Assembly: GCA_951406725.2 (NCBI GenBank)
Contig: OX597827.1
Location: forward strand, 5,766,001-5,830,000
Source of the DNA: Octopus vulgaris
Lineage: Eukaryota
Direction of reading: 5' to 3'
Length of the DNA stretch: 64,000 nt
In this document: positions 51,170 through 54,095 of the stretch, piece by piece
Position numbering within the stretch: position 1 is the first letter of the stretch
Layout: each line of letters opens with the position of its first letter
The notes under the pieces: generated by a model
What the model saw: only the letters and a program-made list of their open reading frames with translations
Told to the model about the DNA's origin: nothing
The model's database searches: none
Position numbers and translations under genes: made by a program

Positions 51170-51491
51170 TATATACATATATAAATATATATATATATAT
51201 ATACGTAATAATGAAGGGTGAAATTAATTAATTTGGAATAATTATCAATTACACCAAGTAGTCTTCGGCATGTAAAAGCCTCATTCGAGGAAAATTTAAG
51301 TAATACTAAGCAATAAAGGGTTTGGCAACGAATTGCCTTACCACATACCGAATTTAGAAATAGCAGTCAAAGAGTTATAGCTATTTCTTCTACTAAAAAG
51401 GGAGATCTCAGTAAAAACAGCAATTGGAAGGCAGACACAAACAGGTAAGAGGGAATGAATTGACGGCAATCTATCATACAATTTTAAGTTA

Positions 51492-51592
51492 TCTACGGAC
51501 GTACGTTTCGAAATCAAGTCTTTAGGAAAGCATAAGAATTAAATATTAAATAATTCTATCTTACCAAGAACTTCTTTTCTCTTCAGCGTAGA
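51492..51592 (-). ncRNA. Type I hammerhead ribozyme (inverted copy)
   Basis: Reverse complement of 52553-52653. A further minus copy at 52085-52168 is truncated within stem II by the inversion junction. Confidence 0.92.
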
Positions 51593-52552
51593 ATACTATA
51601 ATCATAAATGATTATATATTGAATTTTGAGATACTAGAAGGCATCAACTCAACTCAGTATCAGAGCGAGCTAGAATCCGCAACTAGTATCACCAAATTCA
51701 ATGTGTGAATGAGAAGATTGTGTCACCAGCCCCTTCCACCCGCGTGTAGCCAAAACAAGATGCTGTGGTCATCTACTGAGATAAAATATGGTTATCCGTA
51801 ATAATGAAGGGTGAAATTAATTAATTTGGAATAATTATCAATTACACCAAGTAGTCTTCGGCATGTAAAAGCCTCATTCGAGGAAAATTTAAGTAATACT
51901 AAGCAATAAAGGGTTTGGCAACGAATTGCCTTACCACATACCGAATTTAGAAATAGCAGTCAAAGAGTTATAGCTATTTCTTCTACTAAAAAGGGAGATC
52001 TCAGTAAAAACAGCAATTGGAAGGCAGACACAAACAGGTAAGAGGGAATGAATTGACGGCAATCTATCATACAATTTTAAGTTATCTACGGACGTACGTT
52101 TCGAAATCAAGTCTTTAGGAAAGCATAAGAATTAAATATTAAATAATTCTATCTTACCAAGAACTTCTAGCTATAACTCTTTGACTGCTATTTCTAAATT
52201 CGGTATGTGGTAAGGCAATTCGTTGCCAAACCCTTTATTGCTTAGTATTACTTAAATTTTCCTCGAATGAGGCTTTTACATGCCGAAGACTACTTGGTGT
52301 AATTGATAATTATTCCAAATTAATTAATTTCACCCTTCATTATTACGGATAACCATATTTTATCTCAGTAGATGACCACAGCATCTTGTTTTGGCTACAC
52401 GCGGGTGGGAAGGGGCTGGTGACACAATCTTCTCATTCACACATTGAATTTGGTGATACTAGTTGCGGATTCTAGCTCGCTCTGATACTGAGTTGAGTTG
52501 ATGCCTTCTAGTATCTCAAAATTCAATATATAATCATTTATGATTATAGTAT

Positions 52553-52653
52553 TCTACGCTGAAGAGAAAAGAAGTTCTTGGTAAGATAGAATTATTTAAT
52601 ATTTAATTCTTATGCTTTCCTAAAGACTTGATTTCGAAACGTACGTCCGTAGA
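52553..52653 (+). ncRNA. Type I hammerhead ribozyme with long stem II
   Basis: UCUACG-CUGAAGA-[GAAA...UUUC, 70 nt]-GAAAC-GUAC-GUC^CGUAGA. Stem I is 6 bp, the core is intact and loop 3 is palindromic. Predicted cleavage is after 52647. Confidence 0.92.
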
Positions 52654-53146
52654 TAACTTAAAATTGTATGATAGATTGCCGTCAATTCATTCCCTCTTAC
52701 CTGTTTGTGTCTGCCTTCCAATTGCTGTTTTTACTGAGATCTCCCTTTTTAGTAGAAGAAATAGCTATAACTCTTTGACTGCTATTTCTAAATTCGGTAT
52801 GTGGTAAGGCAATTCGTTGCCAAACCCTTTATTGCTTAGTATTACTTAAATTTTCCTCGAATGAGGCTTTTACATGCCGAAGACTACTTGGTGTAATTGA
52901 TAATTATTCCAAATTAATTAATTTCACCCTTCATTATTACGGATAACCATATTTTATCTCAGTAGATGACCACAGCATCTTGTTTTGGCTACACGCGGGT
53001 GGGAAGGGGCTGGTGACACAATCTTCTCATTCACACATTGAATTTGGTGATACTAGTTGCGGATTCTAGCTCGCTCTGATACTGAGTTGAGTTGATGCCT
53101 TCTAGTATCTCAAAATTCAATATATAATCATTTATGATTATAGTAT

Positions 53147-53247
53147 TCTACGCTGAAGAGAAAAGAAGTTCTTGGTAAGATAGAATTATTTAATATTTAA
53201 TTCTTATGCTTTCCTAAAGACTTGATTTCGAAACGTACGTCCGTAGA
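53147..53247 (+). ncRNA. Type I hammerhead ribozyme (second plus copy)
   Basis: Same sequence as 52553-52653, 594 bp downstream. Confidence 0.92.
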
Positions 53248-53739
53248 TAACTTAAAATTGTATGATAGATTGCCGTCAATTCATTCCCTCTTACCTGTTT
53301 GTGTCTGCCTTCCAATTGCTGTTTTTACTGAGATCTCCTTTTTAGTAGAAGAAATAGCTATAACTCTTTGACTGCTATTTCTAAATTCGGTATGTGGTAA
53401 GGCAATTCGTTGCCAAACCCTTTATTGCTTAGTATTACTTAAATTTTCCTCGAATGAGGCTTTTACATGCCGAAGACTACTTGGTGTAATTGATAATTAT
53501 TCCAAATTAATTAATTTCACCCTTCATTATTACGGATAACCATATTTTATCTCAGTAGATGACCACAGCATCTTGTTTTGGCTACACGCGGGTGGGAAGG
53601 GGCTGGTGACACAATCTTCTCATTCACACATTGAATTTGGTGATACTAGTTGCGGATGCTAGCTCGCTCTGATACTGAGTTGAGTTGATGCCTTCTAGTA
53701 TCTCAAAATTCAATATATAATCATTTATGATTATAGTAT

Positions 53740-53840
53740 TCTACGCTGAAGAGAAAAGAAGTTCTTGGTAAGATAGAATTATTTAATATTTAATTCTTAT
53801 GCTTTCCTAAAGACTTGATTTCGAAACGTACGTCCGTAGA
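53740..53840 (+). ncRNA. Type I hammerhead ribozyme (third plus copy)
   Basis: Same sequence again, 593 bp further downstream. Confidence 0.92.
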
Positions 53841-54021
53841 TAACTTAAAATTGTATGATAGATTGCCGTCAATTCATTCCCTCTTACCTGTTTGTGTCTG
53901 CCTTCCAATTGCTGTTTTTACTGAGATCTCCCTTTTTAGTAGAAGAAATAGCTATAACTCTTTGACTGCTATTTCTAAATTCGGTATGTGGTAAGGCAAT
54001 TCGTTGCCAAACCCTTTATTG

Positions 54022-54095
<74 letters not shown>

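Follow-up and report, generated by a model that had tools for sequence, protein, structure and literature searches.

Animal non-LTR retrozymes are described as dispersed, non-coding tandem units of low GC content, present as dimers to multimers, that carry one type I hammerhead ribozyme (HHR) each and co-occur with autonomous Penelope-like elements (PLEs). In the available parts of the published accounts, unit lengths are 170-400 nt in Cervera & de la Pena 2020 (PMC7229834), which reports dimer cleavage through the palindromic stem III for axolotl retrozymes, and consensus lengths are 51-972 bp in Li 2026 (bioRxiv 10.64898/2026.07.22.740005), which argues that animal retrozymes are non-autonomous PLEs; a molluscan retrozyme of 350-390 bp is known from mussel. 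According to the accessible text of Li 2026, the movement of animal retrozymes has so far been inferred from co-occurrence and pLTR similarity. PLE insertions are tandem or inverted, bear a tail at one end and show a (TA)n bias, as far as the available text of Craig 2021 (PMC8557442) goes. The PLE protein studied by Frangieh 2024 (PMC11167929) nicks and extends both DNA strands and prefers AT-rich DNA, and it begins cDNA synthesis at two positions within the RNA, downstream of the HHR, that bracket the genomic tail. HHR cleavage is dispensable in that system, in which uncleaved RNA is the main template, and what the HHR does in PLEs is described as unclear in the available portions of Craig 2021 (PMC8557442) and Frangieh 2024 (PMC11167929).

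We analysed a 64,000-nucleotide stretch of Octopus vulgaris DNA (hereinafter designated the window), in which the array at 51204-54025 shares the listed features of animal non-LTR retrozymes and is very probably a single recent insertion of a non-autonomous PLE, that is, a non-LTR retrozyme. Unit coordinates (u) are counted from the predicted HHR cut, u1 being window position 52648, and the features are as follows.

51080-51203, no strand: left (TA)n target microsatellite.
51204-52168, minus strand: minus arm, 1.63 units (u517-594, 1-594 and 1-294), with its 3' end at 51204, a site B end.
51492-51592, minus strand: intact type I HHR, predicted cut between 51498 and 51497.
52085-52168, minus strand: 5'-truncated HHR, from stem II onward, without the 5' strand of stem I and CUGAAGA.
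52168-52168, no strand: inversion junction, where the arm 5' ends u517 and u115 abut with 1 base in common.
52168-54025, plus strand: plus arm, 3.13 units (u115-594, 1-594, 1-594 and 1-191), with its 3' end at 54025, a site A end.
52553-52653, plus strand: intact type I HHR 1, predicted cut after 52647.
52648-53241, plus strand: predicted monomer of 594 nt, the reference unit u1-594, with a strong circular fold.
52832-52853, plus strand: site A (u185-206), main 3' end of genomic copies and putative reverse-transcription start site 1, in every full unit.
52935-52959, plus strand: site B (u288-312), second 3' end and putative start site 2.
53147-53247, plus strand: intact type I HHR 2, predicted cut after 53241.
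53242-53834, plus strand: predicted monomer of 593 nt.
53740-53840, plus strand: intact type I HHR 3, predicted cut after 53834.
54024-54138, no strand: right (TA)n target microsatellite.

At 52168 the arms face each other with their 5' ends, the 3' ends being directed outward into (TA)n. A preceding sequence-only reading had described near-identical 593-594 bp units with four intact HHRs and one truncated copy, set in inverted arms of about 1.6 and 3.1 units within (TA)n. This layout holds: the unit pieces are 99.66-100% identical to one another, and the two excisable monomers (594 versus 593 nt) differ by one homopolymer deletion and one substitution. Its description of the units as non-coding was also correct, the longest stop-to-stop frame inside them being 66 aa. 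With a GC content of 35%, inside the below-50% range of retrozymes, and three consecutive type I HHR motifs on the plus arm, one per unit, the unit answers, as judged by sequence, to the definition of a non-LTR retrozyme. Its length of 594 nt lies above the range of Cervera & de la Pena 2020 and inside that of Li 2026, so the idea that it is unusually long falls on the available part of the latter. No target-site duplication is readable inside (TA)n, which counts against the PLE explanation.

Each HHR copy contains GAAAC-GTAC-GTC, with the cleavage C at 52647, 53241 and 53834 on the plus strand and at 51498 and 52091 on the minus strand; the copy with cleavage C 52091 begins at u517. The intact copies are built of a 6-bp stem I, CUGAAGA, a 70-nt stem II, GAAA, a 2-bp stem III capped by a palindromic GUAC loop, and GUC, and display the full set of type I features, namely the CUGANGA and GAAA core, stems I-III, an NUH triplet and an open stem I. 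The 70-nt stem II sets the unit apart from animal non-LTR retrozymes as the available accounts describe them. Constraining the fold to the hammerhead shape costs ~1 kcal/mol (–17.1 versus –18.2 kcal/mol unconstrained), and pairing of the stem III palindromes between two HHR copies is computed at –9.8 kcal/mol. The HHR stretch alone is only as stable as its shuffles (z –0.75), which counts against the retrozyme reading. Folded as a circle, the whole monomer reaches –160 kcal/mol (z –6.1, 0 of 60 shuffles as low), the high degree of self-pairing that characterizes a retrozyme monomer.

The hammerhead model search proposed on the sequence-only reading came back empty, Rfam detecting no hammerhead in the array at either the gathering threshold or E<=10; its single match, to a bacterial sRNA at E 0.32, is a chance one. 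The length of stem II most likely explains this miss, and the unit would represent a predicted hammerhead form that standard models overlook. Across 9 distinct variants, 48 of 54 stem I positions pair, a level reached by 4 of 2,000 shuffles. Compensatory swaps distinguish three stem I pairs between family A and its sister family B (essentially one family-level event), and the catalytic core is invariant in both families. We conclude that the unit carries a conserved, predicted self-cutting type I HHR motif. Against cleavage here counts the report, in the available part of Li 2026, that 8 of 9 predicted frog retrozyme dimers were inactive in vitro.

A pattern search of the genome for long-stem-II HHRs returned 1,679 matches, compared with 3 for the control. 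Sorted by eye, the first 100 in the list represent at least ten sequence families, and one of ten sampled loci (L219-L228) sits behind a decayed Hydra-like ORF (L223). A separate, decayed hammerhead-like motif (CGAATGA-GGC..GCC-GAAG) is visible by eye between sites A and B at u209-239 (window 52856-52886 and equivalents) and may be the relic of an older minimal HHR.

Throughout the source assembly (2.8 Gb, 227 contigs), the unit has at least 183 matches of 96-100% identity on 20 contigs, with 40 of 1,966 candidates scored, and one of its 26-mers has 535 exact matches, against 0 for the reversed control; the array in the window is thus one of several hundred young, near-identical insertions. 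The unit is, like a retrozyme, dispersed and multi-copy, and without an attached PLE ORF at the 87 loci screened. The expectation of dispersed arrays in (TA)n is borne out as well: of 62 clusters, 52 have (TA)n no farther than 40 nt from each outer end, 9 have it at only one end and 1 at neither, the microsatellite bias of a PLE-mobilised element. Sister family B (L093, L095, L096, L177-L186) is colinear over the unit, with ~77-80% identity in u79-298, a retained catalytic core and a stem II of 52-54 nt, and follows the same rule of two ends set out below; its colinearity implies that the ~590-nt closed unit is old. Another tandem and inverted family, with a 594-bp period and similar end motifs, occupies L068 1-1811 and has no blastn match to the unit. 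Contigs of three sequencing runs, whose RNA type is guessed, and of one of unknown type cover all 30 unit bins with no pile-up of ends, although such contigs cannot show strand, ends or level and carry no weight here in either direction.

To count insertion ends, we took the loci of the first 100 of the 535 26-mer matches (genome order, contigs 1-3), leaving out L163, a duplicate truncated by a gap, and two copies of the L139 insertion that lie in segmental duplications. Three internally rearranged arms were merged and five 5' ends corrected from their junctions, and the curated sample comprises 60 insertions with 88 arms. Fifty arm 3' ends lie at site A, 29 at site B and 9 elsewhere; the two sites are ~195 and ~298 nt past the predicted cut, and the stretch of ~100 nt between them corresponds to the PLE 'tail'. 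The 28 two-armed insertions divide into 23 A+B, no A+A, no B+B and 5 with an off-site end. In all 23 cases with both ends on-site, one end is A and the other is B, and the array in the window is a typical insertion of this kind. One-armed insertions have their 3' end at A in 24 cases, at B in 5 and elsewhere in 3. The 5' ends of arms are spread over the whole unit. Arbitrary phase, as claimed from the window, is an apt description of these 5' ends and of the inversion points but not of the 3' ends, which are fixed at sites A and B. Fixed 3' ends with an optional tail, variable 5' truncation and tandem or inverted structures are the marks of a PLE-mobilised element and, with the (TA)n targets and the lack of an ORF, sustain the initial interpretation as a retrozyme or non-autonomous PLE. 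Two arms (L008 97-686 and L139 2835-2971) have their 3' ends not at A or B but within 5 nt of the predicted HHR cut (u591 and u5), possibly through priming at a cleaved RNA end.

We propose that a PLE RT/GIY-YIG protein, supplied in trans, would nick both strands of a (TA)n tract, and that cDNA would be primed from each nick at an internal RNA site, at site A from one and at site B from the other. How far each cDNA extends along the unit would vary, with one or more HHR cut sites often crossed, and joining of the two cDNA 5' ends would produce divergent arms, or a single arm if the other were lost. Multi-unit length would be made at the cDNA step, from a template tracing back to one monomer. 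Dual-strand priming at two different sites would be expected to yield the A+B rule, as read from genome anatomy, and the A+B arms may be the genomic counterpart of the dual-strand, two-site priming observed in vitro.

The Poseidon PLE of the green anole, PAc (PMC11167929), likewise starts at two internal sites downstream from its HHR, by which its tail is defined, primes both strands, inserts at an AT-rich target and reads through its HHR. PAc is autonomous, however; its HHR is minimal and its tail, of 30-40 nt, lies within the start of the ORF. The unit has no ORF, and its arms could be counted as A+B pairs in genomic copies; its tail of ~100 nt exceeds the length described, which counts against the PLE explanation. 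Neither divergent arms of PLE type nor two fixed 3' ends form part of the retrozyme accounts of Cervera & de la Pena 2020 and Li 2026 in their available text, and the word 'inverted' occurs 0 times in that of PMC7229834. No cephalopod is named in the same text, nor is there one among the taxa listed for Li 2026. Our literature search, which had repeat libraries outside its scope, found no account of a cephalopod retrozyme, and a term search for 'hammerhead' and 'retrozyme' found neither in the main text of an octopus repeat annotation (PMC13282606). The giant squid paper (PMC6962438), in its available part, gives 235 hammerhead 1 matches. What is new in this family is its long-stem-II HHR, its tail of ~100 nt and the A+B rule with its counts.

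That the units are ordinary pLTRs or 5'-truncated ends of an autonomous PLE is very unlikely, even though the HHR position, the tail and the inversion pattern are as at PLE ends. The unit closes head-to-tail on itself without an ORF and, to judge from family B, has long existed in this closed form. It does not flank an RT and GIY-YIG ORF as a pLTR does: in a screen with three PLE proteins, a PLE ORF was contiguous with the unit at 0 of 87 loci, which refutes the pLTR reading for these loci and, by the condition named in the sequence-only reading, sets the unit apart from an ordinary pLTR. A nearby PLE protein match was found at 8 of the 87 loci, each a separate insertion; the closest of them (L128) is a separate truncated element across the TA tract with its own unrelated 3' end.

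For the preferred reading, that of a non-autonomous PLE mobilised in trans, the best candidate partners would be the young Hydra-like and Neptune-type families of this genome. The latter family (L061-L070), assigned to its clade by our reading, is young, and its intact RT/GIY-YIG frame of 781 aa overlaps another frame, of up to 479 aa, on its upstream side; its HHR core is degenerate, with TTGATAA for CTGATGA. The Hydra-like family has an 899-aa frame that is intact at many loci (among them L203, G000:C1:119513000-119522999), 3.6-kb tandems that are 99.9% identical, and a long-stem-II HHR. Its protein has no Pfam match; it contains DKT, and its C terminus is endonuclease-like and has CxxC and CxH but lacks CCHH, as in the Hydra listing in the available part of PMC8557442, and related groups have frames of 778-1091 aa. 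The HHRs of the Hydra-like autonomous elements have a stem II of 54-60 nt and a palindromic loop III, a build like that of the unit, and the elements end 33-53 or 151-219 nt past the cut at 11 of 13 loci.

Hydra-clade PLEs as described in the accessible portion of PMC8557442 resemble the unit in (TA)n targeting and a canonical HHR core, whereas the unit encodes nothing and has no detectable sequence in common with the families examined. Contiguous similarity to the unit was absent from 30 + 16 GIY-YIG, 10 wider Neptune, 6 + 10 + 1 Hydra-like and 10 other long-stem HHR loci. The lack of sequence common to the unit and an autonomous pLTR in this limited sample of PLE families counts against the proposed relationship, and the clade is for this reason only a candidate, the trans-acting partner being one that we infer. 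Matches in L038, L057, L194, L198 and L216 look like separate insertions of sister families, L038 having been examined over its whole length. In one Hydra-like group, the region that follows the HHR looks like site B by eye, a resemblance that did not stand up to shuffle and profile tests. Non-autonomous Chlamys PLEs such as MRC1 are also non-coding, multicopy in head-to-tail arrangement and located in microsatellites, but most of them have no canonical HHR, and their 3' end is usually similar to that of their autonomous partner, according to the available text of PMC8557442.

A satellite grown locally by unequal crossing-over after one pLTR insertion, and inverted later, would account for the head-to-tail homogeneity and follows a route proposed in the available part of Li 2026, yet it has very little probability. 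At many unlinked loci the arrays stop, directly in (TA)n, at one or other of the same two sites, which indicates that they arrive ready-made, and the A+B rule argues against growth by unequal crossing-over, the 23 of 23 inverted insertions refuting it by their end statistics. An assembly or fold-back artefact is the least credible explanation, since perfect long inverted repeats can arise in long-read data but dozens of loci share this anatomy with different junctions, the outer ends differ (A versus B), which is impossible for a fold-back, and the head-to-tail joint recurs in contigs of four independent runs from four studies.

Within the reading as a non-autonomous PLE, the form of the RNA template can be approached through haplotypes. 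Units differ by 0.5% within a locus and by 1.8% between loci. Among the variant sites at 38 multi-segment loci, 188 are uniform across every overlapping segment, 14 mixed and 69 singletons. Both arms of an insertion carry a common haplotype, and arrays are mostly homogeneous; rare variants are fixed throughout in 7 loci, with a maximum of 10 variants in up to 6 segments at L176. Seven of the 14 mixed sites sit in one nine-unit array (G000:C5:14401496-14406882; L017, L009), whose mixed haplotypes suggest several RNA templates in one insertion, and at L161 one variant occurs in only two of four segments. Homogeneous arrays point either to repeated rebuilding from one monomer, by way of a circle or template jumping, or to copying of multimers that were already homogeneous.

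Two accounts of the template are rated about equal. In the first, which has somewhat less than an even chance, HHR cleavage would free monomers that circularise, and the PLE RT would roll round the circle. Homogeneous arrays and locus-private haplotypes present in both arms, as at L176, favour it, as do about 90 read-throughs of the cut site among raw rows, the strong circular fold of the monomer and the accumulation of circles from coral, mussel and axolotl retrozymes reported in the available part of PMC7229834. Mixed-haplotype arrays do occur, however, and non-autonomous Chlamys PLEs build head-to-tail arrays even though most Chlamys elements are without a canonical HHR (PMC8557442, as far as its available text goes), indicating that arrays can form without ribozyme-made circles. 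Rolling reverse transcription of a circle, as envisaged in the sequence-only reading, is compatible with the homogeneous arrays, but copying of uncleaved multimers or template jumping is compatible with them too.

In the second account, whose chance is likewise a little short of even, the template would be a linear, mostly uncleaved multimer, or monomers joined by template jumping, with the HHR only trimming some 5' ends. The anole PLE, whose dominant substrate is uncleaved RNA and whose HHR mutants still insert (PMC11167929), speaks for it. Three independent arms begin exactly at u2, one base past the predicted cut, and then cross a further cut site; this excess of starts in u1-3 (3 versus 0.46 expected) has P about 0.01 in a window chosen after looking. 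These starts, together with the mixed array and the phased variant in L161, count against a pure circle model. Against the linear account, copying of linear multimers alone can only make arrays shorter and should not lead, time after time, to private haplotypes fixed over 3-6 segments, and in 25-nt bins the 5' ends show no excess after the cut (u1-25, 5; u26-50, 5; u551-575, 5; u576-594, 3). A comparison of TA-adjacent 5' ends at u1-9 (12 distinct loci versus 0 for u29-37) was not accepted as a test, since u3-9 is itself (TA)n-like and a polymorphic base falls inside the control word, and an excess of 5' ends near the cut among the at least 183 matches was left unused because that list had been selected for full-length units.

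More tentatively, and with some doubt, we put forward a fuller model in which a ~594-nt circular RNA made by the long-stem-II hammerhead would be the actual transposition template. A PLE dimer would prime from both DNA nicks at the two internal sites and roll through the ligated cut, and the genome would hold a countable record of this process in A+B arms, one haplotype per array and occasional run-off at the cut; long-stem-II HHRs missed by Rfam might then form a large overlooked class (the 1,679 motif matches). The family is a new example of a known parasite and is unusually suited to tests of PLE movement. It offers a mechanistic fingerprint in its ready-made arrays, its PLE-type ends and the differing fixed sites from which the two arms start. 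With a template that is short, young and non-coding and whose start sites are mapped, in a genome with intact candidate PLE ORFs, the choice between circle and linear template is directly testable.

Elsewhere in the window, an older inverted insertion of a distant relative of the unit (u110-158, 78%) lies in TA-rich sequence at 34280-34900. A 63-bp tandem repeat of 7 copies occupies 25742-26191, inside an apparent SINE-type repeat, and the minus strand at 24021-24473 contains a 150-aa frame that we take to resemble the C-terminal end of a LINE ORF2.
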